Source of the DNA: Candidatus Sericytochromatia bacterium S15B-MN24 CBMW_12
GTDB lineage: Bacteria > Cyanobacteriota > Sericytochromatia > S15B-MN24 > UBA4093
Reading direction: 5' to 3'
DNA length: 64,000 bases
Assembly: GCA_002083825.1 (NCBI GenBank)
Contig: DAZV01000039.1
Coordinates: 9,733-73,732, forward strand
Under the pieces are notes generated by a model. It was not told the origin of the DNA. It was given only the letters and a program-made list of their open reading frames with translations, and searched no databases. Both the position numbers and the translations under genes were made by a program. Positions 8,166 through 26,595 of the stretch are shown piece by piece. Position 1 is the stretch's first letter, and every line of letters begins with the position of its first letter.

Positions 8166-8190
8166 GGCCCCGCGTCCCGAAACGACGAAG

Positions 8191-8249
8191 CCCCTCCCGT
8201 TGCGGGAGGGGCGAGATTTCAGGCCGCCCCGACGGGGCGGCCTGAAATC
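8191..8249. terminator. double hairpin between convergent genes (bidirectional terminator candidate)
   Basis: Hairpin 1 is cccctccc/gggagggg (8191-8211). Hairpin 2 has a ~15-bp stem, gatttcaggccgcccc/ggggcggcctgaaatc (8215-8249), and abuts the stop of the minus-strand ORF. Confidence 0.65.
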
Positions 8250-8566
8250 TAACTAGCGAGAAGGTTTTCGGCGTCCTCGAGGGAGCTGAGGATCATGGTG
8301 CGCTTGCGGCAAGGCCCCTCCGGATAGGAGATGCGAAGCCAGACTTCCTCGCCTTCCGAGAGGCGCCAGAGGGCGTCCGTCAAGGGAAGGGGGGCGGCTC
8401 CGGCTTCAGGAGGGGTTTCGCAGCGGCTGGTTCCACCGGCGAGAATCAGGGAGAGCGCCTTTTGCGCTTCTTTCATGGGGCCGGGAACGGTCGGGGTCTT
8501 GAGACTCCCGGGGGGCGATGTAACTGCGAGGAGGCTTGGGCTTTCCGTGATCGTCAGGTGGCGCAT
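8249..8566 (-). CDS. hypothetical small protein
   Basis: ATG at 8566 (MRHLTITES...) is preceded by AAGGAG. No recognisable domain. Coding status is uncertain because an antisense ORF of similar size exists. Confidence 0.4.
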   Translation of the reverse strand: MRHLTITESPSLLAVTSPPGSLKTPTVPGPMKEAQKALSLILAGGTSRCETPPEAGAAPLPLTDALWRLSEGEEVWLRISYPEGPCRKRTMILSSLEDAENLLAS

Positions 8567-8703
8567 GCGCGTTCTCCTTCTCGGACCGGAGGAGCGGGTT
8601 CTCGGGATCATATTCCCTCTCCCTAGGTTATCGAAACTCGCGGCTCTTTTCAAGAACGGGGGAATCCGGTACGCTGAGGGGCATTCGAAAAGGAGGGGTC
8701 GCT

Positions 8704-11310: not shown

Positions 11311-11438
11311 ACCTCCCGCGGGGCCGCCTCGACCGAGGCGGCCCCGACCGTCATAGTCAGGAGTTGCGGAGCTACACGGATGCTCGTGCCCGATGGATCG
11401 GGTAGAATCAGTCCGTTTCGATCACGAAGGGGGGCGTC

Positions 11439-12362
11439 ATGCGGCGAGGGTTCTGGCTTCTTGCCCTGGGTCTGGGGCTCGCCTTCGCCGTCACGGCGCA
11501 AGGGCAACCGCCCCTCGCACAAACCTCCTCGCGCGTCTCCGGTGATCGAGCATGGAAGCATCTCAACGCCCAGGTCAACCATGGCCCCCGCGTGCCGGGA
11601 TCCCTCGGACACGCCAAAACCCTCGCCTACCTGGAAGCGGAATTGCGGCGGGCCGGAGGCCGCGTCACGGTGGATCGCTTCACCGTGCGCCTCGAGGGCA
11701 AGTCCTATGCGATGGCCAACCTCTACGCCGACTTCGGTCCGACTGCACCTGATGGCTTACAGGGGGGCATGTTGGCGGCCCACTGGGATACGCGCCCCGT
11801 CGCCGACCATGATCCCGAGCCCGCGAATCGCGCCCAGCCCATTCCCGGGGCCAACGATGGCGCCTCGGGGACTGCGGTCCTGCTCGAGATCGCCCGGGTC
11901 CTGGGCGAAACTCCCCCTCAAACCCCCCTCCGAATCGCCTTCTGGGACGGGGAAGATCTCGGAACGACCGATGCCACGATGTTCTACGGGTCCCGCTTCT
12001 ACGTCCGGAACCGCCCCCTCCCTCGCTGGGGCATCCTGCTCGACATGGTGGGAGACCGCGATCTGGTGATTCCGCAGGAGGGCTATTCGGCTCACCACGC
12101 CCCTGAACTCACCCGGCGCATCTGGGATGCCGCCAAGCTGCTGGGATACGCTTCTTATTTCCCGCGAAGGGAAGGCCCCGCCATCAATGACGACCATCTT
12201 CCCTTCCTGGGCGCGGGGGTGCCTTTCGTGGATCTGATCGATTTCGACTACCCCTACTGGCATACGCTGGGCGACAAGCCCGAGCGCTGCTCAGCGAAGA
12301 GCCTGGAGATCGTCGGCAACGTCGTCCTGCATGTCGTTCGCGAGTTGGATCGTCAGAAGTGA
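11439..12362 (+). CDS. M28-family peptidase / glutaminyl-peptide cyclotransferase-like, secreted
   Basis: Signal peptide 'MRRGFWLLALGLGLAFAVTAQG'. Metal-ligand-type motifs 'AAHWDTRP', 'GANDGASGTAVLLE', 'FWDGEDLG' and a C-terminal 'DDHLPF...YWHT'. Confidence 0.8.
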   Translation: MRRGFWLLALGLGLAFAVTAQGQPPLAQTSSRVSGDRAWKHLNAQVNHGPRVPGSLGHAKTLAYLEAELRRAGGRVTVDRFTVRLEGKSYAMANLYADFGPTAPDGLQGGMLAAHWDTRPVADHDPEPANRAQPIPGANDGASGTAVLLEIARVLGETPPQTPLRIAFWDGEDLGTTDATMFYGSRFYVRNRPLPRWGILLDMVGDRDLVIPQEGYSAHHAPELTRRIWDAAKLLGYASYFPRREGPAINDDHLPFLGAGVPFVDLIDFDYPYWHTLGDKPERCSAKSLEIVGNVVLHVVRELDRQK

Positions 12363-12369
12363 GTAAGCC

Positions 12370-13053
12370 ATGCGCGTCTTGATCGTCGAGGACGAACAGG
12401 AACTTGCAGCGGCGTTGCGTGAGGCCATGGAGAGCATCGGTCATGCGGTTGACCTGGCGCCCGACGCGGAGCTTGCCGAGGAGTTCCTGGCGGCTTATCC
12501 GTACGATCTGGCGATTCTCGACGTCATGCTCCCGCGGCGATCGGGTCTCGACGTCTGCCGGTTTGCCCGGGCGCGCAAGCTGGACTTGCCCATCCTCATG
12601 CTCACCGCCCGCGATACCCTCGCCGACAAGGTCGCGGGGCTCGACGCGGGGGCGGATGACTACCTGGTCAAACCCTTCGAACTCGCCGAGTTGCTCGCGC
12701 GGGTTCGCGCGCTTCTGCGCCGCCACTCCCCTCGCAAGGATGCGGTATTGCGGGTGGGGGATCTCTCGCTCGACCCGGCAAGCGGCGAGGTCCTGAGGGG
12801 CGGAACTCCCATCCGGCTGGCACGCAAGGAGCGGGCACTTCTGGAGGTCTTGATGCGCAATGCCGGTCGGATCGTGCCGCGCGCCCGGATTCTCGAGCAT
12901 CTCTGGGACATGGACGCGGAACCGGATCCGGAAGTCATCCGGGCGCATGTCAAGCTGCTCCGCAGGGCGATCTCCGATCGACACGAGCCTCGCCTGATCG
13001 AAACCGTCCATGGCGTCGGGTACCGGATGAACGCGGATGTTCAGGACGCTTAA
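12370..13053 (+). CDS. OmpR-family response regulator
   Basis: Receiver domain 'MRVLIVEDE...DLAILDVMLP...LTAR' and a winged-helix output domain ending 'IETVHGVGYRM'. Confidence 0.92.
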   Translation: MRVLIVEDEQELAAALREAMESIGHAVDLAPDAELAEEFLAAYPYDLAILDVMLPRRSGLDVCRFARARKLDLPILMLTARDTLADKVAGLDAGADDYLVKPFELAELLARVRALLRRHSPRKDAVLRVGDLSLDPASGEVLRGGTPIRLARKERALLEVLMRNAGRIVPRARILEHLWDMDAEPDPEVIRAHVKLLRRAISDRHEPRLIETVHGVGYRMNADVQDA

Positions 13054-14257
13054 ACGCCGGCTGACCGGCTTCTACCTCCTGGTGCTCGTTACGTTGCTGG
13101 CCCTCTACGGAGTTGGCGCCTATTCGCTCTTTCGCTTCTCGACGATCGACGGCCTCGACCACCTCAATGCGCGGATGATCGCTCCGGTCGTCGCCGAGTT
13201 CAACCAAGAGCACGAGGGCTACGCCGAGGTGATCCACGAGCTTGCCGAGGTGGCCATCGGTGAGCGTGAGCATCTCGCACTCTTGACCCGCACGGGGCGG
13301 GTGCTCTATGCCCGGGGCGTCCAGCTCGATCCCGAGCCCGAGCTTCATCCGGGCGCGTTCGCCCTCGGCGGGGCCGATCCCATGCGCCTCCTGGTTCTTC
13401 CCCTGCAACGGGACGGGGAAACGATAGGCTATCTGCGGGTCGGGCAATCACTGCTCGAGCCCGAGCGCGCCATGGCGACCCTGGCCTGGGGCCTGGCGGC
13501 ACTGACGCCGCTTGCCATCGGGCTGGCTTACATCGGAGGAAGCTGGCTCGCGGGACGGGCGGTCAAACCCGTCGAGGACGCCTTCGAGCGGGAGCGCCAG
13601 TTCACCCGGGACGCCTCGCACGAACTGAGGACTCCGCTCGCGGTCCTGCTGGCCCATGCGCAGCTCGCGCTCTCCGATCCCGAGATCCCGGACGGAGCGC
13701 GCGCCAAGCTCCAGATCATCGAGCGATGCGCGCGGAGCATGTCCGTCATGGTCGGGGATCTCTTGACCTTGGGGCGGGCCGATTTCGGAAACCAGGACGC
13801 GGGGGTGGCGTTCTCGCTGGAGGAACTGGTGGAGGAAGAGGTCGAAAGTCTGCTACCGCTCGCCACGGAGCGAGGCATGACCTTGGCTTTCACGTCGGTA
13901 GCCGAGCGATCATGGGTTAACGGCGATCCCGCGCGGATCGCGCAGGCCGTGAGGAATCTGCTCGACAACGCCATGCGTTACGCCCCCGGGGGCTCCCGGA
14001 TCGAGGTTTGCTTGCGGGAGCGTGGCGGGCGATTGGCCTTGACCGTGGCCGATTTCGGGGCGGGGATTCCCTTGGATCAGCAGGAGCGGATCTTCGAACG
14101 CTTCGTGAGGTTGGACGAGGCCCGCAGGGTGAATCCCGCGGGATCCGGGCTCGGACTGGCCATATCGCGGGCGGTGGCGCGCGCCCACGGGGGGGATCTG
14201 ACCCTCGAGTCCCAGGCGGGGCGAACGGTCTTCACGCTTTCGATTCCGACGGTCTGA
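13037..14257 (+). CDS. sensor histidine kinase (two TM segments, HisKA + HATPase_c)
   Basis: H-box 'FTRDASHELRTPL', N-box 'NLLDNAMRYAP', G-boxes 'DFGAGIP' and 'GSGLGLAISR'. It overlaps the regulator gene by 17 nt. Confidence 0.9.
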   Translation: MFRTLKRRLTGFYLLVLVTLLALYGVGAYSLFRFSTIDGLDHLNARMIAPVVAEFNQEHEGYAEVIHELAEVAIGEREHLALLTRTGRVLYARGVQLDPEPELHPGAFALGGADPMRLLVLPLQRDGETIGYLRVGQSLLEPERAMATLAWGLAALTPLAIGLAYIGGSWLAGRAVKPVEDAFERERQFTRDASHELRTPLAVLLAHAQLALSDPEIPDGARAKLQIIERCARSMSVMVGDLLTLGRADFGNQDAGVAFSLEELVEEEVESLLPLATERGMTLAFTSVAERSWVNGDPARIAQAVRNLLDNAMRYAPGGSRIEVCLRERGGRLALTVADFGAGIPLDQQERIFERFVRLDEARRVNPAGSGLGLAISRAVARAHGGDLTLESQAGRTVFTLSIPTV

Positions 14258-14327
14258 GATTTCAGGTTTTTTTCACAAGGGCCCCTTATTCTGGAACTCG
14301 ACTCTTGTTATTCAAAGGGAGGATGAG

Positions 14328-14621
14328 ATGGGAAAGTACGGGCTCTCTCTGCTGCTGAGTGCGTTCATGGTCGCGACTCCGGCACTTGCGAGCGATCGGT
14401 CGGGTGACTGGGCGCTGGAAGCCTTGGCTGAGCAGGTGACGATCACTCCCGCTCAGGCCGTGAAGGCGGCGAAGGCGGTGGAGAAGGGGCGGGTGAAAGA
14501 GGTTTGTCTCAAGGCTCATCAAGGCCGTCCCGTCTACGAGGTTGAGCTTGAAGGGGACATCGAGGTCATGGTCGATGCGCGGACGGGCAAGGTCATCCCG
14601 CGCCCGGCCCGAAGAAACTAG
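14328..14621 (+). CDS. PepSY-domain secreted protein
   Basis: Signal peptide followed by a PepSY-like 'AVKAAKAVEKGRVKEVCLKAHQGRPVYEVELEGDIEVMVDARTGKVI'. GGGAGG RBS. It lies downstream of the two-component pair. Confidence 0.75.
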   Translation: MGKYGLSLLLSAFMVATPALASDRSGDWALEALAEQVTITPAQAVKAAKAVEKGRVKEVCLKAHQGRPVYEVELEGDIEVMVDARTGKVIPRPARRN

Positions 14622-14677
14622 GAAGCTTGAAAACCAAGGGAATTCAGAGGCGAACGGAAGTATAAGGAAGGCACGAG

Positions 14678-15166
14678 ATGAGTAAGCTGCAAGAAACATG
14701 GATTCGCGAGCGGTTTCCGCAACTGGTGGGGCTGATGGTGGTCGGGGGCTTCGCCCTGATCCTCGCGGAACTGCTCTTGATGGATCATACCGAGAAGACC
14801 CAGAAGATCGGCGTTTTGATGACGGTCGTCGGGATGCTGGGCGCGGGCCTGGGGCTCGTGGTCGGTCCCCGGTTTCGCAAGGCGCTCTTGGGCGTCTTGG
14901 TGCTGGTGGCGGCAAGCGGATTGTTCGGAACGTACGAGCATCTGGAGGAAGCGCAGGAGCACCGGGAGAAGGCGGCTAAGCGCCAGCAGAGCACCCTGGT
15001 GGTTCGGAAGGCGGATTTCGACCGTTCGGCCTCGCTCGAGTCCGAGGCGGGCGAGCATGACAAGGAAGAGAAGGAGGAGTCCGGTCCGCCACCGCTCGCT
15101 CCCTTGGGCGTGAGCGGCCTGGCGGTGCTGGGGGGGCTGGCTCTGATGGCGCGTAAGGCGGCGTAA
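14678..15166 (+). CDS. hypothetical membrane protein
   Basis: Three to four hydrophobic helices and a charged central segment. AAGGAAGG RBS. Confidence 0.6.
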   Translation: MSKLQETWIRERFPQLVGLMVVGGFALILAELLLMDHTEKTQKIGVLMTVVGMLGAGLGLVVGPRFRKALLGVLVLVAASGLFGTYEHLEEAQEHREKAAKRQQSTLVVRKADFDRSASLESEAGEHDKEEKEESGPPPLAPLGVSGLAVLGGLALMARKAA

Positions 15167-15178
15167 CCGGCGCCTCCC

Positions 15179-15442
15179 CTAGGCTTGCGACGATCTTGCC
15201 AGGATCGACTTCTCGACGAAGTCTACCAGGGCCTCGACGGTGGCCACCTGGCGCATCTGGTCGTCCTCGATGAAGAGGTCGAACTCATTCTCGAGGGCCA
15301 CGGTGATCTCGGCGATGTTGATGGACTCGGCGCCCAGGTCCCGCACGATGTGTGCGTCCGGGCGAAGGGTGGTCGAGTCTTCGATCATGAGCACGTCGGC
15401 CAGGATGGCGACGATCTGGGTTTGTAACGCGGTGCGATCCAT
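15179..15442 (-). CDS. acyl carrier protein (free-standing)
   Basis: 87 aa, acidic. The phosphopantetheine-site motif 'DLGAESINIAEI' has Glu-Ser in place of the usual Asp-Ser. Start trimmed to MDRTALQ with an AGGAGG RBS. It is the last gene of the lipid operon. Confidence 0.8.
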   Translation of the reverse strand: MDRTALQTQIVAILADVLMIEDSTTLRPDAHIVRDLGAESINIAEITVALENEFDLFIEDDQMRQVATVEALVDFVEKSILARSSQA

Positions 15443-15453
15443 GGGGCAGCCTC

Positions 15454-16887
15454 CTAGAAAGACCATAAAGGGGAGCGACGGGGGGGACGAATCCGGGCGG
15501 GGGCCGCCTGCAAGGCCTCGAGGGATGTGATGAGCTCCCGCCGGGTATGCCGGGGATCGATGACCGCGTCGACGATCCCGGCTCGCTGGGCGGCATAGGC
15601 GTCCGACGGGACGCGTCGAAGACCCTCCAGGGCCTCCTTGCGGAAGGCGTCGGGGGCCTCATGAGTCAGGAATTCCTTGCCATGCAGGATGGCGAAGCTG
15701 GCCTCGGCGCCCGCGATGCCGATCTGGGCCGTTGGGTAGGCGAGGACCCTATCCCCTCCTGCTTGCTTGGCCTGCAGCATGACGAAGGCACCTCCGAAGC
15801 ACTTCCGAACGATCAAGGCGATACGGGGCACGTCCGTGTCGACGGCATGAAACAGGACTCCTCCGGCCGATAGGATGGCGGCCTGCTCTTGCTCGACGCT
15901 CACCATGATGCCCGGTACGTCGACCAGGTAGAAGAGCGGCAAGCCATGGGCGTCGCAAAGCCGCACGAAGCGGCTGGCCTTACGGATGGCCTCCACGTCG
16001 AGGGCGCCGCCGCGCACCTTGGACTGGTTGGCGACGAGGCCCACGGGGTGACCGTCGAGTCGGGCGACGCCTACGACGATCGGCTCGCCCCAGGAGCGGT
16101 GGACCTCCATGAACGATCCCCCGTCGAAGATGGCCTCGATCAGGCCCCGGACGTCGTAGGGGACAAAGGGGCTCTTGGGGACGACGGCTTCGATTTCCGC
16201 GCCGGAGGGTGGCACGGGCTCGCGACGGTCCCTTGACAGGTAGCCGAGCATGGAGCGCAGCTCGGCGATGCAGGAGGCGTCGTCATCGGCCAGGAAGTGC
16301 GCGACCCCGCTCTTGGCAGCATGCATGGAGGCCCCGCCGAGCTCGTTGAGGTTCACTCGCTGCCCGGTCGCGACCCTGATGACCGAAGGACTGGTGGTGA
16401 AGGTGTAGCTCTCGCCGGGAATCATCCAGACCAGATCCGCGAGGGCCGCGATGTAGGCGGGGACCCCTGAACAGAGCCCCATGCAGGCCGTGAGCTGGGG
16501 TGCCACCCCGGAGTGCCGCGTGAGGGACAGGAACAGCTCGGCATTCCCCCCCAGAGAGCCATAGCCCTCGGAGACCCGGGCGCCGTTAGACTGCAAGAGG
16601 GCCACCACCGGCAGCCGTTTTCGGGACGCGCGCTCCAGCAACGTGATGATGCTGCGGGTCTCGGCGATTCCTAGCGTGCCTTCCTCGACCAGGTAGTTGC
16701 TCGCATAGGCCAGCGCCGGGCGCCCTTCCACGGTACCTTCGGCCGTCACGACGGCCTGCTTCCATGCCTCGTCCCAGTTCGGGGCGTTCAACAATGCCAG
16801 GGATCCCTCGTCGAACAGGGCCTTCAGACGATCCTCGAACGAGAGCTGTCCCAGTCGCTTCAGTTTGGTCAGATAGCGTGCTTTCAA
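15454..16887 (-). CDS. acyl-CoA carboxylase carboxyltransferase (AccD/PccB beta-subunit family)
   Basis: 477 aa with a two-lobed carboxyl-transferase layout ('VVALLQSNGARVSEG...', 'GGASMHAAKSGVAHF', 'VGLVANQSKVRGGALDVEA', 'KCFGGAFVM'). TTG start 7 nt after AGGAGG. Confidence 0.85.
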   Translation of the reverse strand: MKARYLTKLKRLGQLSFEDRLKALFDEGSLALLNAPNWDEAWKQAVVTAEGTVEGRPALAYASNYLVEEGTLGIAETRSIITLLERASRKRLPVVALLQSNGARVSEGYGSLGGNAELFLSLTRHSGVAPQLTACMGLCSGVPAYIAALADLVWMIPGESYTFTTSPSVIRVATGQRVNLNELGGASMHAAKSGVAHFLADDDASCIAELRSMLGYLSRDRREPVPPSGAEIEAVVPKSPFVPYDVRGLIEAIFDGGSFMEVHRSWGEPIVVGVARLDGHPVGLVANQSKVRGGALDVEAIRKASRFVRLCDAHGLPLFYLVDVPGIMVSVEQEQAAILSAGGVLFHAVDTDVPRIALIVRKCFGGAFVMLQAKQAGGDRVLAYPTAQIGIAGAEASFAILHGKEFLTHEAPDAFRKEALEGLRRVPSDAYAAQRAGIVDAVIDPRHTRRELITSLEALQAAPARIRPPRRSPLWSF

Positions 16888-16898
16888 GTCGCGTCCTC

Positions 16899-17912
16899 CT
16901 ACAGCACGAGCGCGACGGCACCGGCCGTGTAGCCGCCGCCGGCCGCCGTGAGCACCAGGCGATCGCCCTTCTTGATTCGACCGGCATCCGAGGCCAGCTT
17001 CAGAGACAGGGGGATGGTGGCGCTCGAGCAGTTCCCCGTGCGCTGGATGAACTCGGCGCAGCGATCGGGGGGAACGCCGAGTTCATCCCGGATGGCCCGG
17101 ATCATTCCCAGGTTCGCCTGATGGGGAACGAGGTAGTCCACGTCATCCAGGCGCCAGCCGGCCATCTCCATGACCTCCCGGGCACAACGCACCATCGTCT
17201 CGGTCGCCCGCTCGAAGATCTCGCGGCCGTCCTTCATTTCCATGTACTGCCGCCCCGAGGCCAGGCGTTCCGGGGTCAAGGGGAGCCTGGAGCCGCCACC
17301 GGGAATGGTCACGTTGCGCGTCCCCGCCCCATCGGCATAGAGGACCATGGCCTGGAGGCCTTCGGTGCGCGATGGCTCGCGGGAGACGAGCAAGGCGCCC
17401 CCCGCGGCGTCGCCGTAGATGGGCAGGATGCGCCCCTCCCGGGGGTTGATCTGGCGCGAGCGGATCTCGCTCGCGAGCACCAGCACCCGATCCTCGCCGG
17501 TCATGAGCGCCCGGCTCGCGGCTTCGATGGCGTAGAGAAAGCCCGAACATGCGGCCGAGACGTCGTAGGCGGGGTACGTGCAGCCCGGCTCCAGGCGATC
17601 CTGGACGGCGCAGGCCGTCGAGGGCATGATCCAGTCTCCCGAGGTGGTGGACACGATCAGGCGATCGAGTTCATGGGCACGGATGCCCGCCCGATTCAGG
17701 ATCCGGCTGGCCGCCTCGAAGGCCAGGTCGGAGGCGGCCTGGTCCGCGGCGGCCCAGCGGCGCTCCTCGACGCCGATTCGCCCGCGGATCCAGGACTCGG
17801 TGACGGGCAGGCCGAACTCCGCTATCAGATCCCGGTTGGTGACGACGCGCGCAGGCCAGTAGGCGTCGAGCGCCGCCAGTCCGACGCGCCCTTCAACGTT
17901 CAGCCTGGCCAT
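16899..17912 (-). CDS. 3-oxoacyl-ACP synthase III (KASIII/FabH-like), paralogue 1
   Basis: Cys/His/Asn triad contexts 'DVSAACSGFLYA', 'LVPHQANLGMI', 'GNCSSATIP'. Start trimmed to MARLNVEG with a GGGAGG RBS. It overlaps the SDR gene end. Confidence 0.85.
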   Translation of the reverse strand: MARLNVEGRVGLAALDAYWPARVVTNRDLIAEFGLPVTESWIRGRIGVEERRWAAADQAASDLAFEAASRILNRAGIRAHELDRLIVSTTSGDWIMPSTACAVQDRLEPGCTYPAYDVSAACSGFLYAIEAASRALMTGEDRVLVLASEIRSRQINPREGRILPIYGDAAGGALLVSREPSRTEGLQAMVLYADGAGTRNVTIPGGGSRLPLTPERLASGRQYMEMKDGREIFERATETMVRCAREVMEMAGWRLDDVDYLVPHQANLGMIRAIRDELGVPPDRCAEFIQRTGNCSSATIPLSLKLASDAGRIKKGDRLVLTAAGGGYTAGAVALVL

Positions 17913-18672
17913 CGGCCGCCTCCCGGATGTACATGGCCGACAGAGGGTTGCCGAGATGCAGCCCGCCATCCACCCGTAGCGTCTCTCCGGTGATGAAGGA
18001 GGCCTGGGGTGAAGCCAAGAAAGCGACGGCGTTGGCCACGTCCATGGGATCTCCCAGCCGTCGAACGGCCGAGGCCAGGGCGAATCGTCGAGCCTTGGCC
18101 TTCCCGAAGAGTTCCAGGCGTTCGGTGAGAACGGGACCCGGCTGGATGATGTTGGCCGTCAGACCATGGGGCGAGTAGTCGATCGCGAGGTTCCGGATCA
18201 GGCCTTCCATGGCGGCCTTCGAGGCGCAGTAGGCGGGCCCGTAGGCCTCTCCCAGGGAGGCTGCGAGCGAGCTGATGGCGATGATCCGGCCCCATCGCCG
18301 CTCCAGCATGCCCGGGATCACCGCCGCGCTGAGACTGGCCGCGGCGAAGAAGTTCACTTCCATGACCCGGCGCAGCGTTTCCATGCCCCCCTTCAGGAAG
18401 GGCGCCAGTTCGGGGGGATGGGCGGCGTTGTGGACCAGGATGTCGACATGGCCGATCTCGGCGAGAATGGACTCGACCGCGCCCTCGCAAGCGAGGTCCG
18501 CGACGAACGTGCGAACTCCGCCTCCGGACCGGGCCTCGAGCGCCGCGAGGCGATCACCTCGGCGTCCCACTCCGACCACGCGGGCCCCCGCCGTTTCGAG
18601 CGCCAGGGCGATCGCCGCTCCCATGTCGCTCGTGGCCCCGGTGACGAGCGCTACCTTCCCGTTCAGGTTCAT
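17893..18672 (-). CDS. SDR-family oxidoreductase (3-oxoacyl reductase-like)
   Basis: 'GKVALVTGATSDMGAAIA' Rossmann motif and the 'YCASKAA' YxxxK motif. The ATG at 18672 forms an ATGA overlap with the upstream stop. Confidence 0.85.
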   Translation of the reverse strand: MNLNGKVALVTGATSDMGAAIALALETAGARVVGVGRRGDRLAALEARSGGGVRTFVADLACEGAVESILAEIGHVDILVHNAAHPPELAPFLKGGMETLRRVMEVNFFAAASLSAAVIPGMLERRWGRIIAISSLAASLGEAYGPAYCASKAAMEGLIRNLAIDYSPHGLTANIIQPGPVLTERLELFGKAKARRFALASAVRRLGDPMDVANAVAFLASPQASFITGETLRVDGGLHLGNPLSAMYIREAADGQAER

Positions 18673-19721
18673 GTCCATCCCTTCCACAAGGCGGAGCCCC
18701 AGCGCATGCCGCCTCCCAGCGCGCTGAGCGCGCACCAGCCCTCGGGCCGCTCGTGCCTTACCTCATGCAGGGCCATCAACAGGGAGGCCGCGCCCGTATT
18801 GCCGTACCGCTCGATCGTCGTGACCATGCGCAGATCCGGCCTTCCGAGCGAGCGATGAACGTCCTGCAGGATGGGCAACGAAACCTGGTGCGGGATCCAG
18901 AGTGCCAGCTCATCCATGCCGACCTGTGTCCTGGCGACCAGCTCCTGCAAGCCGTCTCGGTAGCGCGCGACGACCAGGTCGCGGGTCTGAGTCGGAGCCC
19001 CCCGGTAGTAGAAGGCGCCCGAGTCGATGTCCGCCTGACGGGGGGGCATGGAGCCGAAAACCCCCGCGTGATCCCATGTGGAGTACTCGCCGCCGAGCAG
19101 GCACGCGAAGTTCGGCTCCGGGGCCGCCTCGAGAACGAGCGCCCCCGCGCCGTCGCCCACGTTCAGGAAGCCGGAGAGAGCCTGGGCGTCCACGTATTTG
19201 CTCATGGTGTCCGAACCGACCACCAGCACGCGGCGGTAACCGTTCGCCAGGCTCATGGCTGCCCACTGCAGGGAGTACACGCTGCCCGCGCACCCGGCCT
19301 TGAGATCGAAGCTGGGGCCCATGTAACCCAGGCGCGCACAAAGGGGGCTCGCCGAGGGCAGCGTGGCCATGGGGGAGGTGTTGAGGGCGAGGATCACCAG
19401 ATCGAGATCGGAAGCTTGAAGTCCGGCATCCCTCAGGGCGGCCGAGGCCGCCTCGGTGGCCAGGTCGATGGCCGTCGCCTCGTCCTCGCGCGCCTCGGAG
19501 CCGACCCAGTGGCTCCAGTGGCGGCGCTGCCCCCCGCTGGCCGCGATCATTCGCTGCATGGCCTGCTGCTTGCGCAGGGAGAGTTCCCCGTACCCGAGGA
19601 CGCCGAGCATGTCCGCGTTGGTGACGACGTCTTTGGGGCCGTCGGGCGTGGGGCAGCTCGGCACGGCGATTCCCGAGCCCCGGACGCGCATGGATCCTCG
19701 GATGAGTGGCAACTCAGGCAT
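18669..19721 (-). CDS. KASIII-like condensing enzyme, divergent paralogue 2
   Basis: Thiolase-fold triad contexts 'DLKAGCAGSVYSL', 'WIPHQVSLPIL', 'YGNTGAASLL'. The N-terminal region is longer and more divergent than FabH. It overlaps the FAAL gene end by 8 nt. Confidence 0.8.
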   Translation of the reverse strand: MPELPLIRGSMRVRGSGIAVPSCPTPDGPKDVVTNADMLGVLGYGELSLRKQQAMQRMIAASGGQRRHWSHWVGSEAREDEATAIDLATEAASAALRDAGLQASDLDLVILALNTSPMATLPSASPLCARLGYMGPSFDLKAGCAGSVYSLQWAAMSLANGYRRVLVVGSDTMSKYVDAQALSGFLNVGDGAGALVLEAAPEPNFACLLGGEYSTWDHAGVFGSMPPRQADIDSGAFYYRGAPTQTRDLVVARYRDGLQELVARTQVGMDELALWIPHQVSLPILQDVHRSLGRPDLRMVTTIERYGNTGAASLLMALHEVRHERPEGWCALSALGGGMRWGSALWKGWT

Positions 19722-21372
19722 CCTGCAGAGGCCTACGTGACTCGATGTGGCGTTGACGGGCCTCGGAGCGTCTCACCTTGCCACTGGTGGTCTTGGGAAG
19801 GGACCGTGGCGGCAGGAGGATCACCTCGTCCACCCGCAGGCCGACATGCTCCATGACCCGCGTCCGGATGGCCCGGTGCAGCGCTTCTCGCTCGACGGCC
19901 ACCTGGAGGCGGGTCTCGACGTGCATCACGAGGTGTTCCGGCGCCCCGAACTCCTGGGAGTAGGAGAAGGCGATCGCTCCGCCGTTGCGGACCTCCGGCA
20001 GCGCCTCGGCGATCGCCTCGATGTCCTGGGGGTGGTATTTGCAGCCTCCCCTGATGATCAGGTCCTTGACGCGGCCCGTCACGTAGAGGCGCCCGGCGGA
20101 CAGGTAGCCCAGGTCCCCCGTGCGCAGGAATCCGCCCTGCAGGGCCTCTTGGCTCGCGGCGGCGTCTCCGAAGTAGCCGTCCATGATCGAGGGGGACTGC
20201 GCCCAAATCTCCCCGATTTCCCGCTCGGGGAGGTCCGCGCCACCTTGGTCGCGGATGGCGAGGGTGACGCCCGGCATGGGGGGCCCCACGCAGACGATCT
20301 CCTGGGCTGCTGCGTCCGGGTTCCCGGCAAGGACGGCCGACCGGTGCTCCTCGTAGGCCGCCCGCGTCAGGCGCTCGACCTGCATGCCTGCGCCGGGGCG
20401 GGTCATGGCGACCCCGAGCGTCGCCTCCGCGAGCCCGTAGGCGGCGACGAAGGCCCCAGGATCGAAGCCATGCGGCTGCATTCGCTCGGCAAAGGCCCTC
20501 AGCGTCGCTGGGCGGATGGGCTCGGCGCCCACCATTGCCGCGCGCCAGCGCGATAGGTCGAGTCCCGACAGGTGCGAGTCCGACAGGCGGGTGCAAAGCT
20601 GATAGGCGAAGTTGGGCGCCACCGAGATGGTGGCCCCGTAGTCGGAGAGGGCCCGCAACCAGCGAATGGGATGCTGGATGAAGTGCTGAGGGGGCATCAA
20701 GACCAGATGGCAGCCGACGACCTGGGAAAAGATCAGCTTGCCGATCAGGCCCAGGTCATGGTGCAAGGGGAGCCAGGAGACGAGCACGTCCTGGGGACCG
20801 GCCTCCAGCACGTCCCTGATGGCCCACGTGTTCGCCAGGAGCTGGGTCCAGCCCAGAGCGGCCCCCTTGGGGTGGCCGGTGCTGCCCGAGGAGAATTGGA
20901 TGATTCCGCCTCCGGGTCCTGCCGGCAGCCTGGCGTCACCGGTTGCTTGCGGCAGATCGTCGGGCGTCAGGATCAAGCACGGGGCGTCCGGCAGCAGGAG
21001 CCGGTTCTCGGGGGTGACGAGCGCGAGGCGTGGATCCGCCTTGACGAGCGTCCGGAGCAGCCGGAGCCTCTCGTGATCCTGTCCCGGCGTGGGCGGGGCC
21101 AGCGGGACCACCGTGGCGCCAAGCATCCAGGCCCCGAAAAGGGCTCCCAGGAAGTCCTCGCAGGTCGGCAGGACGAGGGCCAGTCGATCTCCCTCTCGCA
21201 GACCCGCTTGCTGCAGGCGCGCCGCCCATCCCATGGCGAGGGCGCTCAAATCGGCCCCCGTGTAGGACCTTGGGCCTGCGTCCTCGAACAAGGTCAGGCG
21301 AACGCGCCCGTGGTCCTTGATCCATTGTTCGTTGACCTGGATAATCAGAGAGTCTTGCGCCGTGAAAGCCAT
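19714..21372 (-). CDS. fatty acyl-AMP ligase (FAAL)-type adenylating enzyme
   Basis: Motifs 'IQFSSGSTGHPKGA', 'SWLPLHHDLGLIG', 'APNFAY', 'YGLAEATL', 'RTGDLGY', 'GRVKDLIIRGGCKYHPQDIE' match the FadD32/FAAL pattern as I remember it. Start is at MAFTAQDS (21372). The tracked 1027-aa ORF is an artefactual upstream extension. Confidence 0.85.
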   Translation of the reverse strand: MAFTAQDSLIIQVNEQWIKDHGRVRLTLFEDAGPRSYTGADLSALAMGWAARLQQAGLREGDRLALVLPTCEDFLGALFGAWMLGATVVPLAPPTPGQDHERLRLLRTLVKADPRLALVTPENRLLLPDAPCLILTPDDLPQATGDARLPAGPGGGIIQFSSGSTGHPKGAALGWTQLLANTWAIRDVLEAGPQDVLVSWLPLHHDLGLIGKLIFSQVVGCHLVLMPPQHFIQHPIRWLRALSDYGATISVAPNFAYQLCTRLSDSHLSGLDLSRWRAAMVGAEPIRPATLRAFAERMQPHGFDPGAFVAAYGLAEATLGVAMTRPGAGMQVERLTRAAYEEHRSAVLAGNPDAAAQEIVCVGPPMPGVTLAIRDQGGADLPEREIGEIWAQSPSIMDGYFGDAAASQEALQGGFLRTGDLGYLSAGRLYVTGRVKDLIIRGGCKYHPQDIEAIAEALPEVRNGGAIAFSYSQEFGAPEHLVMHVETRLQVAVEREALHRAIRTRVMEHVGLRVDEVILLPPRSLPKTTSGKVRRSEARQRHIESRRPLQDA

Positions 21373-21486
21373 GCGATCGCCGTTTCGTAACGAAGTGGGG
21401 AGTCTTGTTCGGCTATACCCAAGCCCGTACGAAAGAGCACCTAACGGGCAATACCTCGTGTCGGCCTCAACCTGAAGGGATACCTC

Positions 21487-22047
21487 ATGACGGATTGGAT
21501 CACCCTCGTCGCCATCATCGGCAGCACCCTGCTGCATTTCATCCTGGAAGGACGGATCAAGGCCAATCCCACGGCCGCGGATCGCGTCTTCGACCTCAAG
21601 AGCGCGCGGCTCTGGAACCTGATCACCCTGTCCTGCATGGCCTTGCCGCTCATCGAGATGGCGATCCTGGGCCCCGTGACGCCTTGGCCGCGCGGGGCCA
21701 TGCTGGGACTGCCCCTCATGACGCTCGGCATGGGGCTGCGCTACCAGGCGATCCTCCAGCTCGGGGCGTACTTCACCTATCCCATCTGCCTGCGCCCGGA
21801 GCATCGGCTGGTCCAGGAGGGTCTCTACCGCCGCTGGCGCCACCCTAGCTACTTCGCCAACTTCCTCATCCTGACGGGTGCCTGGACCATGCTGCAGAGC
21901 CGCTGGTTGCCTTTCGGAATCCTCGCCTACGCCGCCATGACCTGGTACCGCATCCGGCGCGAGGAGAAGGTGCTGCTGGAGCATTTCGGGGAGGATTACG
22001 CCCGCTATCAGGCGAGCAGCAAGGCGCTGATACCCTTCGTCCTTTAG
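21487..22047 (+). CDS. isoprenylcysteine carboxyl methyltransferase (ICMT/PEMT)-family membrane methyltransferase
   Basis: Five hydrophobic helices. Family motif 'GLYRRWRHPSYFANFLIL' and C-terminal 'REEKVLLEHFGEDYARYQ'. It is divergent from the FAAL gene. Confidence 0.8.
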   Translation: MTDWITLVAIIGSTLLHFILEGRIKANPTAADRVFDLKSARLWNLITLSCMALPLIEMAILGPVTPWPRGAMLGLPLMTLGMGLRYQAILQLGAYFTYPICLRPEHRLVQEGLYRRWRHPSYFANFLILTGAWTMLQSRWLPFGILAYAAMTWYRIRREEKVLLEHFGEDYARYQASSKALIPFVL

Positions 22048-22100
22048 CGCCAGCGGCTGTTGATTAAGGCAGCGAGAGAACGCCGTCGAGCTTTGCTCTA
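22045..22100. repeat. intergenic repeat family, short form copy B
   Basis: 'tagcgccagcggctgttgattaaggcagcgagagaacgccgtcgagctttgctcta'. Its first TAG is the stop of the ICMT gene and its last CTA is the TAG stop of the minus-strand acyltransferase gene. Confidence 0.85.
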
Positions 22101-22883
22101 AAGCGATCGCGCGAGGGGCCTGGCCGGATTCCCGCCCCAGCGCTCCTGCGCTGGGATGTGGGTGCCCTTCTCGACCACCGAGTTCCAGTCGAGCTCGCAG
22201 CCGTCGCCGAGGGTGCAGTTGGACTGGATCATGCAGTAGGGGCCGATCTTCACCCCCGAACCCACCCTGACGTTCGGGCTGAGCGCGGTGCGGGCCCCGA
22301 TGAGGCAGTCCTCTCCGATGGTCACCCCCGGACCGACCTCGGCGGCGCCGCCCAGGACGCTGCGGCTCCCGATCCGGATGCTCCCGAACAGGAGGGTGTG
22401 GCCCTCTCCGCCCAGGTGGGTGGCGAGGCTCGAGAGGGTTCCCAGCGTCACGTCGTCTCCTACCTCGACGAGGCAGGGCTCCAGGATCGTGACGTAGGGG
22501 GCGATGTTGGTTCGGCGGCCGAGCTTGGCTCCCATGAGCCCGAAGTAGAGGCGCTGGAAGGAGATGAAGGTGCTCAGGAAGGGCTTCAGCTCCCCGAGGG
22601 CGAAGCCGTGGAAGAGCGTGTAGAATCCCCAGCGCAGGAAGGTAGGGGATCCGGCCGGCGCTGGCCCCGGCGTCAGGCGTCCCACCAGGAGGCGCGAGAG
22701 CACGCCGCAAAGGATCAGGAACAGGAAGATGCCCAGGTACCCCAGGAAGGGCAAAACCCCGACGAGGCCCCAGACTCCCCCGCGTCCGAAGGCCCACTGC
22801 CCCACGAGAACCATGGGCCCGAAGGCAATGGGAGCCAAGAGGGCGACCAGGATCAGCCGCATGAGATCGTAGAGGATCAGCAT
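22098..22883 (-). CDS. membrane-anchored hexapeptide-repeat (left-handed beta-helix) acyltransferase
   Basis: The N-terminal ~110 aa have 3-4 TM helices. The C-terminal part shows imperfect hexapeptide periodicity ('VEVGDDVTLG', 'IRIGSRSVLGGAAEVGPGVTIGEDCLIGARTALSPNVRVGSGVKIG'). AGGAG RBS. Confidence 0.75.
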   Translation of the reverse strand: MLILYDLMRLILVALLAPIAFGPMVLVGQWAFGRGGVWGLVGVLPFLGYLGIFLFLILCGVLSRLLVGRLTPGPAPAGSPTFLRWGFYTLFHGFALGELKPFLSTFISFQRLYFGLMGAKLGRRTNIAPYVTILEPCLVEVGDDVTLGTLSSLATHLGGEGHTLLFGSIRIGSRSVLGGAAEVGPGVTIGEDCLIGARTALSPNVRVGSGVKIGPYCMIQSNCTLGDGCELDWNSVVEKGTHIPAQERWGGNPARPLARSL

Positions 22884-22890
22884 AAGGCTC

Positions 22891-24126
22891 CTAGTAGCTC
22901 ACGTGCTCGATCTTGCGCCGTTCGACGACGCGGATCCGGTCGGGGGCGTCCATCTCGTAGGTGACGCCCCGCCAGGTGATGCGGTTGGTCGGGATGGAGG
23001 CGACCACGTTGACGAGCCCCAGAAGGCTGGTGAGTGGCATGGCGAGGAGGTAAGCGAGGGGCAGCTTGCGGTAGTGCTCCGCGTTCTCCGGCACCGCGTC
23101 GCGCAAGGCCCCGAGCATGATGGCGCCCATCAGCCAGGTCAGGGGGGCATGGGTCAGAAGCAGGAATATGGCGGGGTCGAGCTGTCCCCGGAAGAGCCCC
23201 ATCGTCAGCAACACGAGGCTCATGAGCAGGAAGAAGTTGGGCAAGCCGTAGGAGATGAAGGCCGTTCCCCACATGCGACCGAGGTAGACCTTGGCGATTG
23301 CCATCTGGCGGTTGGTCCATTCCAGCAGGCCGGGCATGGTCGCGTTCTCGAAGGTGCCCACCACGCAGTGGGGGACGAAGCAGATTCCCAGGCCCGCCTC
23401 CTTGACCGAGGCGGCGACGAGGGGACCGTCACAGAGGGCTTGCTCCCATCGCCGGGCAATCTCCAGGCGCTCGAAATTGTGACGAAGGATGGCCATGGAA
23501 CCGGCCCAGGTGCCGTTCAGCTTGTCGTTCGCGAGCACCGCCGTGGACATCATGCTCCAGGAGGAGCGCAACAAGGAGGCGAGGTTGCCGTCGGTCGGGA
23601 AGATCATGCGGTAGCCGGTGCTCGCACCGAACTGCGGATCCCCGAGGGGACGAACCAGGTCCCTCAGCCAGGAGGCATGGGGTCGGATATCCGAATCGAT
23701 GAAGACCAGGGCCTGCGAGTCGGGATCCGCATGGCGCAGCCCGACCAGGTGGTTGTGGTTCTTCTCGCTGCACAAGGAGCCGTGACCCGACACGACGATC
23801 CGGGCGCGAACGCCCGGATGGGCCGCGATCGCTTCTCGGATGACCGGCAGGCAGGGATCCGTCTCGTCGGCCACCACGCAGAGCAGTTCCCAGTCCGGAT
23901 ACTCCTGGCCGAAGATGGCTGCCAGGTTCTCCTTTAGCCCGGGGTCGAGGCCCTTGCAGGGCAAAAGGATGCTGCAGCGAGGCGAGAAGTCGGGGAAATT
24001 CCGGCTCGGGAAGTCCCGGACATACTGCCTGAACCGCATGGCCAGCGCCACCGGGACCAGGTTGAAGGCCAGGGCCAAGAGGCCCACTGAGAGGGTTCCG
24101 GCCGAAAAGCCGCTGAACGTGATCAT
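22891..24126 (-). CDS. glycosyltransferase family 2 (GT21 ceramide-glucosyltransferase / HpnI-like)
   Basis: N-terminal TM helix, then 'CSILLPCKGLDPGL', 'ALVFIDSDIRP' (DxD-type), followed by C-terminal TM helices. The ATG at 24126 forms an ATGA overlap with the MMPL stop. Confidence 0.8.
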   Translation of the reverse strand: MITFSGFSAGTLSVGLLALAFNLVPVALAMRFRQYVRDFPSRNFPDFSPRCSILLPCKGLDPGLKENLAAIFGQEYPDWELLCVVADETDPCLPVIREAIAAHPGVRARIVVSGHGSLCSEKNHNHLVGLRHADPDSQALVFIDSDIRPHASWLRDLVRPLGDPQFGASTGYRMIFPTDGNLASLLRSSWSMMSTAVLANDKLNGTWAGSMAILRHNFERLEIARRWEQALCDGPLVAASVKEAGLGICFVPHCVVGTFENATMPGLLEWTNRQMAIAKVYLGRMWGTAFISYGLPNFFLLMSLVLLTMGLFRGQLDPAIFLLLTHAPLTWLMGAIMLGALRDAVPENAEHYRKLPLAYLLAMPLTSLLGLVNVVASIPTNRITWRGVTYEMDAPDRIRVVERRKIEHVSY

Positions 24127-26309
24127 GAGGGGATCCTGCCGTTTCTGAAGTGTGGCCCGCGAGGCCACCAGTAGTTCCAGCGACCCATCAGGGCCATCAT
24201 GGAGGGAACCAATACCAGACGAATGAGCGTTGCGTCAACCAGGATCGCCACCGAGAGGCCGAGGCCTATCTCCTTGAGGGTCCGGATTTCCATGGCCAGG
24301 TAGGGCAGAAAGACGCTGAGCATCACCAACGCGGCCCCGAGCACGACGCCGCTCGAGCGCTGCAGGCCGTCGGCGATCGCCTCGAGGGGCGGCATCCCCT
24401 CGTCATGGGCTTCTCGGATGCGCGCCAGAATGAAGAGCTCGTAGTCCAGGCTGATCGCATAGAGCACCGAGAAGAGGATCAGAGGCGTGAGGCTCTGGAC
24501 GTAGCCATTGCCGTAGGTGCCGAGGAACTGCGCTCCGAACCCGTACTGGAACACGGCGACCACCGCCCCGAAGCCGGCCAGCACCGGTAGCAGGTTGGTC
24601 AGGATGGCCTTGATCGGAAGGATGGCCGAACGCAGGAACCGCGCGAGCAGGAAGTAGGAGCCGAAGAGGTTGATGCCCAGGACCCATGGCAGGGCCTTCT
24701 GGAGGGCTCTCTGGGAGTCCTCTTGCTCGGCGAGCATTCCTCCCAGGTAGGGCCTGGCTTCAGGGATCGGATTCTCCCCCAGCGTGCGCGCCAGGTCCGA
24801 GAGCAGTCCGGCCCCCTCGGGACTGTCCGGCGCAAGGCGTGTCGTGACGCGCATGAGGGTGATGCGTCCGTCCGGACTCAAGGGTGAGGAAGGCAGCACC
24901 AGGCCCGCGAGGGACGACTTCAGGAGGTGGGAGAGTGCCGCCGGACTCAGGCCGCGATCGCTCGCGAGGCTTTCGACCCGGGCAACCCGCGGATCGGCGG
25001 CGATGGCCGCTTCGACCCTGCGCAGGCCCGCGAGGAAGGCTTCCTCCTTGGCTCCGTCCGGGCGATCGCACTGCCAGGTGACGAGGATCGGGCTCACGAG
25101 GCCGCCCTCCCCACGGGAGAGCAGCCACTCGAAACCGCGGTAGCTCTCGAGCCCATGAGGCAAGAGGGAGATGAAGGGAGACCAGGTCCTGGCGTGAGCG
25201 ATGGGGAGGATGAGTAGCCCCAAGAGCAGGGACGAGAACAGCAAGGAGCGCCGCGGCCTCTGGACGATGGCGCGGCTGAGCCTCCCCCAGGTACGCGCGG
25301 CGGGGCGGTCCTTGATCCGCAGGAGCGAGGCCAGGGGGAAATAGCGTCCGAGCAGGAAGAGCGCGCTCGGGATCAGCGTGAGCGTGAGGGCCGCCGCGAT
25401 CGGTCCCGTCAAGGCGACCGTCAGTCCGATGGACCGGACCTCCGGGACGGCGACGACCAGGAGCGAGAGCCCCCCAAGCGCGATGACGAGGCTCGAGAGG
25501 CCCACGGTCCTCCCGGCGGTAGCCAGCGTTCTCGCCAGGGCGCCCTCGGGGTTCTTGGCATGTTCTTCTTTCAGGCGCGAGAGGAGGATCAAGGGGTAAT
25601 CGATCCCCAGGGCCATGGCCAGGATGGCGACCATGATCTGGTTGAGGCTGGAGACGGGTAGCCAAGGGAGCAGGAGCGCCATGACGAGGTTGCCCGCAAG
25701 CAGGGTCGATAGGCCCGAGAGCAGGGACAGCGCGGCCATGAGGATGCCCCGGAAGGTGAGGACGAGCACGATCATGGAGATCAGGAGGGACACCTTCTCG
25801 ACCCGGGCGAGGTCGTCGCTGAGCTGCTGGAAGGCGTCGTAGGCGGCCGCCCCCGGCCCCGTGAGGGCCGCCTCGACGCCGGGCGGCAGCGTCACTTGGC
25901 GGATGGCCCCGCGCAGTGCGGGGATCATGCGGGCCGGCGGGATCCCGCGCTCGGTGATCACGAGGAGGGGGGTGGCGCCCTGAACGCCGCGCACGCCGGG
26001 GACCGCGCGGAGGGCGCGCTCGAGGTCGGGTTCGACCTGCCGGGCGACTTCGGGATCACCGCTCAGGACGAGGAGGTGGTGCGAGCCGTCCAGGGCGGGG
26101 AGGGCCCGGGACAGGTGAAGGCGGGCCATGGCCGAGTCGGAGTTGGGAGGGGGGGCTTGTTCTTGGACCAGGCGCGTCGCGAGGTGCGGAGCCAGCCAGG
26201 CCCCCAGGGCAAGGACGATTGCCCAGCCGAGCACCCAGAGGAGCGGCCAGCGCTGGACCCGGGGGCCAATTCGGGTCGAGAGGTCGGATGGTGTCGTGGA
26301 TCGTCCCAA
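24123..26309 (-). CDS. MMPL/RND-superfamily lipid exporter
   Basis: Two blocks of ~6 TM helices separated by soluble loops, typical of MMPL proteins. The proposed TTG start at 26309 lies 9 nt after GGGAGG. The upstream 88 codons of the tracked ORF have no Met and overlap the divergent promoter region, so the start is uncertain. Confidence 0.8.
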   Translation of the reverse strand: MGRSTTPSDLSTRIGPRVQRWPLLWVLGWAIVLALGAWLAPHLATRLVQEQAPPPNSDSAMARLHLSRALPALDGSHHLLVLSGDPEVARQVEPDLERALRAVPGVRGVQGATPLLVITERGIPPARMIPALRGAIRQVTLPPGVEAALTGPGAAAYDAFQQLSDDLARVEKVSLLISMIVLVLTFRGILMAALSLLSGLSTLLAGNLVMALLLPWLPVSSLNQIMVAILAMALGIDYPLILLSRLKEEHAKNPEGALARTLATAGRTVGLSSLVIALGGLSLLVVAVPEVRSIGLTVALTGPIAAALTLTLIPSALFLLGRYFPLASLLRIKDRPAARTWGRLSRAIVQRPRRSLLFSSLLLGLLILPIAHARTWSPFISLLPHGLESYRGFEWLLSRGEGGLVSPILVTWQCDRPDGAKEEAFLAGLRRVEAAIAADPRVARVESLASDRGLSPAALSHLLKSSLAGLVLPSSPLSPDGRITLMRVTTRLAPDSPEGAGLLSDLARTLGENPIPEARPYLGGMLAEQEDSQRALQKALPWVLGINLFGSYFLLARFLRSAILPIKAILTNLLPVLAGFGAVVAVFQYGFGAQFLGTYGNGYVQSLTPLILFSVLYAISLDYELFILARIREAHDEGMPPLEAIADGLQRSSGVVLGAALVMLSVFLPYLAMEIRTLKEIGLGLSVAILVDATLIRLVLVPSMMALMGRWNYWWPRGPHFRNGRIPS

Positions 26310-26595
26310 GCCCCCGAGCCTCCCTAAAAAGCAAGCACAATGGAATTCCTGGCGGGATGAGAGCCCTGTACCCCGGGTCGGTTCAAGGCTAACGGCCGCG
26401 TCTGCTTCAAGGAGGGCCTGCGCGCCTGGGGCCCCGATCAACGGGTTTTTTTTCACTTGCCGTTCGGGAGGGGGGCTGGCGCGTCGGGACGAGATCGCGG
26501 CCGGCTGGAGAATTTGCTCTCCAGCCGGTTGATCGGTATCGGAGCATTGGCGTGGTATGCTTTGGGGGTTCACATCACGTCACGGGAGGTGGGCC

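Follow-up and report, generated by a model that had tools for sequence, protein, structure and literature searches.

The stretch of DNA considered here (the window; 64,000 nucleotides at 65% GC, over whose full length all coordinates are counted) comes from Candidatus Sericytochromatia bacterium S15B-MN24 CBMW_12. It carries two genes for proteins of the β-ketoacyl-ACP synthase III (KASIII) type, here called KAS1 and KAS2, and the role of this pair is the subject of our analysis. The source genome is labelled G000, and its contigs are referred to as C1, C37, C39, C43, C55 and C59. Real genes were separated from spurious open frames by third-position GC, which placed the pair within six tightly packed minus-strand genes between 15179 and 21372, in the order FAAL-KAS2-SDR-KAS1-CT-ACP:

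19714–21372, minus strand: fatty acyl-AMP ligase (FAAL), which opens the operon, about 552 amino acids (NCBIfam fatty acyl-AMP ligase, 8e-124)
18669–19721, minus strand: KAS2, a KASIII of clade A as defined below (ACP_syn_III, 2e-18; ACP_syn_III_C, 3e-18)
17893–18678, minus strand: classical short-chain dehydrogenase/reductase (SDR), a FabG-like ketoreductase (Pfam adh_short, 3e-42; adh_short_C2, 5e-49)
16899–17912, minus strand: KAS1, a KASIII of clade B (ACP_syn_III, 2e-15; ACP_syn_III_C, 4e-29), with the reading frame open to 17969
15454–16887, minus strand: carboxyltransferase (CT), the β subunit of a biotin-dependent acyl-CoA carboxylase of the AccD/PccB family (Pfam Carboxyl_trans, 1e-100)
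15179–15466, minus strand: acyl carrier protein (ACP), last gene of the operon, with a likely start near 15442 (Pfam PP-binding, 1.4e-9)

FAAL and KAS2 overlap by 8 nt, KAS2 and SDR by 10 nt and SDR and KAS1 by 20 nt, while KAS1 and CT lie 11 nt apart; SDR is translationally coupled to both of its neighbours. The start of KAS1 at 17912, within an open reading frame of 16899–17969, is favored by homologues of 337–341 amino acids. Among solved structures in the PDB, FAAL is best matched by an entry titled Fatty Acyl-Adenylate Ligase (8e-91), with FadD32 structures following at ~1e-52, and CT is best matched by carboxyltransferases of the PccB/AccD type (~1e-93 to 1e-77), without being markedly nearer to any one solved subtype.

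Two diverged relatives of FabH

Both KASIII proteins match Pfam families PF08545 and PF08541 and share 28% identity with each other (BLASTP E-value 4e-20). An earlier reading of the sequence, the original prediction, had described two clearly diverged KASIII paralogues on either side of a reductase, each with a recognizable setting for the catalytic Cys, His and Asn, and the second with an extended N-terminus. Our analysis bears out each of these observations. The two genes flank a classical SDR gene on the minus strand, and the motifs of KAS1 (AACSGF, HQAN and GNCSS) and of KAS2 (AGCAGS, HQVS and GNTGAAS) place Cys, His and Asn in alignment with the FabH triad in phmmer comparisons with solved FabH structures. 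The best PDB match is FabH for both proteins, at 5e-55 for KAS1 and 1e-30 for KAS2. KAS1 passes the cut-off of 249 bits for the NCBIfam KASIII subfamily NF006829 with a score of 284.6 bits; KAS2, at 160 bits, falls under it.

Within the KAS2 family, Cys144 and Asn308 are invariant across 18 aligned orthologues and the His is kept in more than 90%. KAS2 has a KAGC active-site motif, HQVS in place of HQAN, and approximately 33 extra N-terminal residues, such that its alignment to FabH begins at KAS2 residue ~77–83 as compared with FabH residue ~44–50. The AlphaFold model of KAS2 (pLDDT 87.5, pTM 0.89) presents a complete FabH fold. The extra N-terminal region, which is modelled with confidence, adds a hairpin, lengthens a helix and contributes a coil of 22 residues; it does not form a separate domain. 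Compared with FabH structures this model gives TM-scores of 0.78–0.88, and the top 50 Foldseek matches are FabH, PqsD and BioZ.

FabH is accordingly the known enzyme that both proteins most resemble, sharing the fold and the Cys/His/Asn triad and providing the best sequence match for each and the best structural match for KAS2. They differ from it in several respects. Both genes have a FAAL, a CT and a dedicated ACP as neighbors; KAS2 departs further in its NF006829 score, its N-terminal extension, its KAGC motif and its HQVS; and both proteins lack an Arg two residues after the HQAN position, a residue that we take to be the ACP-docking Arg249 of FabH. Nor does either gene occupy the housekeeping fab position. 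The housekeeping fabH of the source genome lies at C59:10422–11519 and groups with bona fide FabH in our tree, and its surroundings, by gene order and sizes only, look like plsX-fabH-fabD-fabG-acpP-fabF. Another KASIII-like gene of the genome (C55:170317–171324) is of a different type, with an NSTCLSF motif around its Cys, HQAS and a long branch in the tree, and is followed by an open reading frame of 425 amino acids.

The KAS2 family comprises about 28 orthologues of 49–60% identity and is set apart from generic FabH by a wide gap in similarity. Nearly all members are metagenomic, and the only named ones belong to Candidatus Sericytochromatia. True KAS2 orthologues were present in just three of 40 relatives of the source genome, and none of these three shares its genus or family. 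With so patchy a distribution, the cluster is an accessory and probably mobile trait.

Comparison with head-to-head condensing enzymes

The original prediction had further taken paired KASIII-fold genes next to an SDR to be the hallmark of the LstA/LstB and NltA/NltB head-to-head condensation systems. On this interpretation the pair would constitute a thiolase of the OleA/LstAB/NltAB type that joins two chains without decarboxylation, with the SDR in the place of OleD and the ANL-superfamily enzyme as an OleC-like β-lactone synthetase. The gene set has a superficial likeness to such systems, in that two genes of the KASIII fold accompany a reductase and a member of the ANL superfamily. As in LstAB, NltAB and OleA systems, two diverged KASIII-fold proteins belong to one lipid cluster, with 28% identity here and 23% between LstA and LstB (PMC12141560).

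The likeness does not extend to the active site. In KASIII-fold enzymes that condense without decarboxylation, the catalytic base is a Glu located 24–26 residues before the Cys, as exemplified by OleA (E117/C143), PpyS (E105/C129) and NocG (E100/C125) (PMC9486936). Using this published residue spacing, rather than direct alignment to OleA, LstA/B or NltA/B, we found no Glu in the loop 24–26 residues before the Cys in 18 KAS2-family and 8 KAS1-clade sequences, and the wider sets of 12 sequences from clade A and 9 from clade B likewise lacked it. The trans-acting Glu of the OleA type, for which the original prediction had proposed a check, is absent at this spacing from both families; indeed, the loop preceding the catalytic Cys reads ...WIMPSTAC in KAS1 and ...MATLPSAS in KAS2. 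The catalytic residues are also not divided between the two proteins as they are in LstAB, for which a review assigns the triad to LstA and places the Glu (E60) on LstB (PMC12141560), since KAS1 and KAS2 each carry a full triad.

The remaining genes of the operon also argue against head-to-head chemistry. NCBIfam models and solved FAAL/FadD32 structures identify the ANL enzyme as a FAAL, and the reductase is a classical adh_short SDR and not of the OleD type (3β-HSD-like). CT and ACP are core genes of the cluster and are joined in some relatives by biotin carboxylase (BC) and biotin carboxyl carrier protein (BCCP), none of which a non-decarboxylative, CoA-based condensation needs. The presence of CT and ACP in the operon points to decarboxylative, ACP-based chemistry instead.

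Matches to OleA were far poorer than those to FabH. Three PDB chains that we take to be Xanthomonas OleA (3row, 4kti and 5vxd) matched KAS1 at 4e-20 and KAS2 at 2e-5, as against 5e-55 and 1e-30 for FabH. The model NF006720, presumably OleA-like, gave 114 bits for KAS1 and 43.5 bits for KAS2 with a cut-off of 285, which was exceeded nowhere in the source genome, and no entry titled OleA was found among the top 50 Foldseek matches of the KAS2 model. Taken together, these findings make an OleA-type function of the pair extremely unlikely, and the proposed hallmark does not hold for this locus.

Two further comparisons sharpen the distinction. LstAB and our pair have in common a predicted FabH-like heterodimer interface; LstAB, however, is non-decarboxylative, uses CoA substrates and is encoded by adjacent genes, whereas KAS1 and KAS2 are separated by the SDR and accompanied by CT, ACP and FAAL. 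NocG, from the cyanobacterial nocuolin A pathway, and PpyS, which makes photopyrones, have the KASIII fold and link two chains that derive from fatty acids and are delivered by FAAL/ACP (PMC9486936), and in this they resemble the present system. They are, in contrast, single non-decarboxylative enzymes that possess the catalytic Glu (E100 and E105), while KAS1 and KAS2 lack it and have a carboxylase component beside them.

Two KASIII clades that recur together

Phylogenetic analysis by maximum likelihood, performed on correctly framed sequences, revealed a deepest split (support 100/100) between a clade A and a group formed by clade B and FabH. Clade A unites the KAS2 family with a group of more remote KAS2-like proteins and with a protein, C1a, encoded elsewhere in the source genome. 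Clade B (98/97) is sister to housekeeping FabH and contains KAS1, a second protein of the source genome, C1b, and the second KASIII of the related loci L001, L005, L031, L040, L043, L044 and zcTP-0wq; the longer KASIII of zcTP-0wq and both KASIII genes of 4FC2vHL4 (gene list only) are not fully placed.

C1a and C1b belong to a second, paralogous two-KASIII cluster in the source genome (L046; C1:150001–170000, genes ~4979–17524). In one direction it encodes an exporter of the MMPL family, a hydrolase and a hexapeptide-repeat (LbH) acyltransferase; in the other, a methyltransferase, the clade-A protein C1a, the clade-B protein C1b after a gap of a single nucleotide, a CT, an SDR, an ACP, another SDR and an AMP-ligase. 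When this cluster is counted, ten related loci offer enough context, and nine of them combine an A-like KASIII and a clade-B KASIII with an SDR and an adenylating enzyme; eight of those nine also have a CT within the stretch read, sometimes with BC and BCCP. Because the two kinds of KASIII co-occur so consistently, including in the second cluster, we conclude that the pair is not a redundant duplication of FabH but an old and recurrent functional unit. The earlier argument that a single FabH role would not need two copies therefore stands: KAS1 and KAS2 fall in two deep KASIII clades that appear together repeatedly, and the housekeeping fabH is found elsewhere.

The surrounding gene order is also conserved. 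The core arrangement FAAL-KAS2-SDR-CT-ACP, or most of it, is kept at 44–64% identity in L001/L002, L003, L005 and L031, with parts of it on the short contigs L004 and L024 and the order KAS2-SDR-CT-ACP in the gene list of 4FC2vHL4. SDR orthologues (55–64% identity) directly follow KAS2 in every orthologous locus, the FAAL precedes KAS2 in L001, L003, L004, L024 and L031, and orthologous ACPs come after CT in L001, L005 and L031. The order in which the two KASIII genes bracket the reductase, with KAS1 between SDR and CT, is confined to the window and L031. Genes of the GH3 family, similar to acyl-acid amido synthetases, adjoin three of the related two-KASIII clusters (L001:3764–5377, L003:1016–2686 and L043:2906–4414), and none occurs in the window.

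This pattern bears on whether KAS1 might be a spare, FabH-like initiation enzyme that was captured by the operon, leaving the pathway dependent upon KAS2 alone. Its score above the NF006829 cut-off would suit such an origin, as would its restricted position between SDR and CT and the case of L003, where no second KASIII lies within 10 kb of the KAS2 orthologue. KAS1 nevertheless falls inside a supported clade of cluster-associated partners that is distinct from housekeeping FabH, and nine of the ten loci have a clade-B gene. The 'SGDW/SPDY' loop also sets clade B apart from FabH, and the clade-B position that, by our own reading of the alignment, we equate with Phe87 of E. coli FabH is taken by a small residue, namely Met, Thr or Ser. 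We therefore regard a captured spare copy as very improbable. In the mycobacterial enzyme, a Thr at the Phe87 position makes room for long acyl chains in the pocket.

The two clades differ in how far they have moved from the canonical motifs. The Cys/His/Asn triad is kept in all nine clade-B sequences, with HQAN and GN motifs throughout the clade, and to judge from these residues clade B looks like a classical decarboxylating partner. The HQAN Asn has been lost in KAS2 orthologues, and one subclade of clade A (L040:9419–10570, L041:9391–10488 and L045:1649–2743) retains Cys and His and carries a Ser where the triad Asn would stand, in a YGS or HGS motif, a substitution that hints at a non-canonical activity. 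On motif evidence (KAGC, the lost HQAN Asn and the Ser subclade), clade A is the more derived of the two, and because of these derived motifs it may handle the chain delivered by the ligase or may make a different kind of carbon–carbon bond.

A possible division of labor and a candidate lipid pathway

How the two enzymes share their work can be read in more than one way. We give an even chance to the reading in which both KAS1 and KAS2 are FabH-type enzymes competent in catalysis, each performing its own decarboxylative carbon–carbon step in a single ACP-based pathway that leads to a modified fatty-acyl tail. That they would act separately and in sequence is, in our estimation, equally finely balanced, and here we infer that each forms its own homodimer rather than one half of a heterodimer.

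Four points weigh against this reading. A KAS1:KAS2 heterodimer assembled through the canonical FabH interface was predicted with an ipSAE of 0.87, as compared with 0.00 for the best control. The clade-A and clade-B genes of C1 are 1 nt apart, a spacing typical of subunits. The subclade with Ser for Asn indicates, as far as residues can tell, that clade A may in some cases be something other than a condensing enzyme of the classical decarboxylating kind. Finally, that one ketoreductase should serve two condensations is unexplained.

The first two of these points favor an obligate FabH-type heterodimer of A and B proteins, in which two different active sites would make up one condensing machine; one site could serve the acyl chain delivered by FAAL and ACP, and the other the carboxylated partner. 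The joint occurrence of A-like and clade-B KASIII in nine of ten loci, across the deepest split of the tree, is in keeping with such a machine, as is the adjacent, divergent arrangement of the two genes in L043, and LstAB provides a precedent for heterodimers of KASIII proteins (PMC12141560). In the model, at least 87% of contacts agree between runs and the partner has a pLDDT of at least 85; of 80 solved complexes, 58 reach the mark applied to ipSAE, as do 2 of 110 mismatched pairs. The heterodimer, one of the assemblies for which the original prediction had called for multimer modelling, is predicted with high confidence, but this does not separate heterodimer from homodimers: solved FabH homodimers exist and both proteins are FabH homologues, and so the predicted association may reflect no more than likeness to those homodimers. 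The predicted interface has no charge complementarity between A and B, both sides being mildly acidic, which is uninformative either way.

Several observations speak against an obligate heterodimer. PqsB and the chain length factor (CLF) of KS/CLF pairs are without an active-site Cys. Both KAS1 and KAS2 have full triads, whereas for LstAB the review places the triad on LstA and the Glu on LstB (PMC12141560). The two genes lie anywhere between 1 nt and several genes apart: a single nucleotide in C1, adjacency in L043, one intervening gene in the window, L001 and L031, and a distance of 2–3 genes in L040 and L044, with a separation of up to four genes overall. In L005 and 4FC2vHL4 the second KASIII lies on the strand opposite KAS2. 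There and in L001 it is accompanied by its own AMP-ligase and a small ACP (placement in clade B being available for L001 and L005), and for these reasons of company and strand it looks like a separate (loading) module and not a subunit. The lone KAS2 orthologue of L003 also sits uneasily with an obligate partnership, as do the clade-A genes of L041 and L042, for which no KASIII, SDR or CT match was found in 19 kb; two of the genomes with such solo genes do hold a KASIII with a B-like loop elsewhere, which may be a housekeeping FabH. In L042 (L042:9248–11944, genome G030) the clade-A gene, without clade-B, SDR or CT neighbor, is directly followed by a gene for a B12-binding radical SAM protein. 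On balance, an obligate heterodimer seems to us possible but doubtful.

With sequential, separately acting enzymes as the preferred reading, the gene content suggests a pathway. The FAAL would adenylate a fatty acid and load it onto the ACP of the cluster, and the CT, together with BC and BCCP encoded elsewhere, would supply a carboxylated extender in the form of a malonyl-, methylmalonyl- or longer alkylmalonyl-thioester. One KASIII would condense the loaded acyl chain with this extender and the SDR would reduce the resulting β-keto group, whereupon the second KASIII might add a further unit, or prime or branch the chain. Both source-genome clusters encode a CT without an in-cluster BC (15454–16887 in the window and C1:162923–164278), and the three BC genes of the genome are on contigs C37, C39 and C43. 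Dedicated sets of BC, BCCP and CT occur in L040 and L043, and BC and BCCP in the truncated L045. These sets, together with the CTs of both source-genome clusters, fit the use of carboxylated extenders and so a decarboxylative condensation.

The fate of the product is suggested by the genes beyond the FAAL. An exporter, a glycosyltransferase and an acyltransferase lie upstream of the operon on the same strand, and a methyltransferase gene is divergent:

21487–22047, plus strand: membrane methyltransferase of the ICMT/PEMT type, divergent from the operon (Pfam ICMT, 2.7e-16)
22098–22883, minus strand: membrane-anchored hexapeptide-repeat (LbH) acyltransferase (Pfam Hexapep, 2.8e-18)
22891–24168, minus strand: family-2 glycosyltransferase (GT2), HpnI-like (Pfam Glyco_tranf_2_3, 2.6e-9; TIGR03472 HpnI, 1e-29, below its cut-off)
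24123–26573, minus strand: RND exporter of the MMPL family (Pfam MMPL, 3.6e-63)

The product could pass to the membrane LbH acyltransferase and the GT2, after which the MMPL pump would export an envelope lipid or glycolipid. Homologues of the LbH acyltransferase are present in L003, L004 and L005 as well as in the second source-genome cluster, and an ICMT-like homologue lies at the edge of 4FC2vHL4. An open reading frame of 1027 amino acids (19714–22797) spans the FAAL gene and the antisense of the ICMT-like gene and overlaps the LbH acyltransferase gene out of frame; considered as a fused protein, it was rejected on third-position GC and Pfam evidence as a high-GC artefact.

The assemblage recalls the mycolate condensation system, which consists of the FAAL FadD32, the carboxyltransferase AccD4, Pks13, the reductase CmrA and the exporter MmpL3. 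Here as well, one neighborhood brings together a FAAL and a CT of the AccD family with a condensing enzyme, a ketoreductase and an exporter of the MMPL family, and a long alkylmalonyl extender would lead to a mycolate-like branched hydroxy acid. The two systems also differ. The present locus has a discrete KASIII pair and a free ACP instead of the type I polyketide synthase (PKS) Pks13, with no PKS at the locus; its CT is no nearer to any one solved subtype than to the others; its host is Sericytochromatia-like and does not belong to the Corynebacteriales; and the FadD32 model (~1e-67) and the MmpL3 model both matched far below their cut-offs. It is tempting to go further and to picture the A/B pair as a dedicated heterodimeric condensing machine with two active sites. 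Partnered by FAAL, free ACP, a ketoreductase and an acyl-CoA carboxylase for long chains, it would link two chains derived from fatty acids, without a PKS, and yield an acyl unit branched either in the mycolate-like 2-alkyl-3-hydroxy manner or in some other way; this unit would enter an MMPL-exported glycolipid in non-photosynthetic relatives of cyanobacteria. We consider this extended proposal unlikely.

A further parallel is found in alkylquinolone synthesis, where PqsD and PqsB/PqsC likewise represent several KASIII-fold enzymes working in sequence after an adenylating enzyme, and PqsD is among the structural matches of KAS2. PqsBC is a heterodimer in which one subunit is without an active site. 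The alkylquinolone system differs from the present one in having no ACP, CT or reductase and in using an aromatic substrate. Our literature searches found no paper describing a gene set of FAAL, ACP, two KASIII, SDR and carboxylase. All the parts belong to known families, while their recurrent assembly around an A/B pair of KASIII is, as far as we could find, undescribed.

For annotation, our findings carry the warning that a cluster of two KASIII genes and a reductase need not be Ole- or Lst-like. If the A/B pairing is a real division of work, the cluster would represent an uncharacterised route to lipid tails from free fatty acids, with an ACP and an acyl-CoA carboxylase of its own, in which a FAAL, two different KASIII enzymes and a single ketoreductase would take part. 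It would further provide a rare KASIII pair with full active sites on both members, and with it a clean system for studying how KASIII enzymes diversify into heterodimers or sequential homodimers. Besides Sericytochromatia, a small number of other bacteria, most of them uncultured, have the system, and it is found twice in the source genome. To our knowledge, the cell envelope of the Sericytochromatia lineage has not been studied. That both clusters of the source genome adjoin an LbH acyltransferase and an MMPL exporter points to envelope lipids in these bacteria that have not yet been described.

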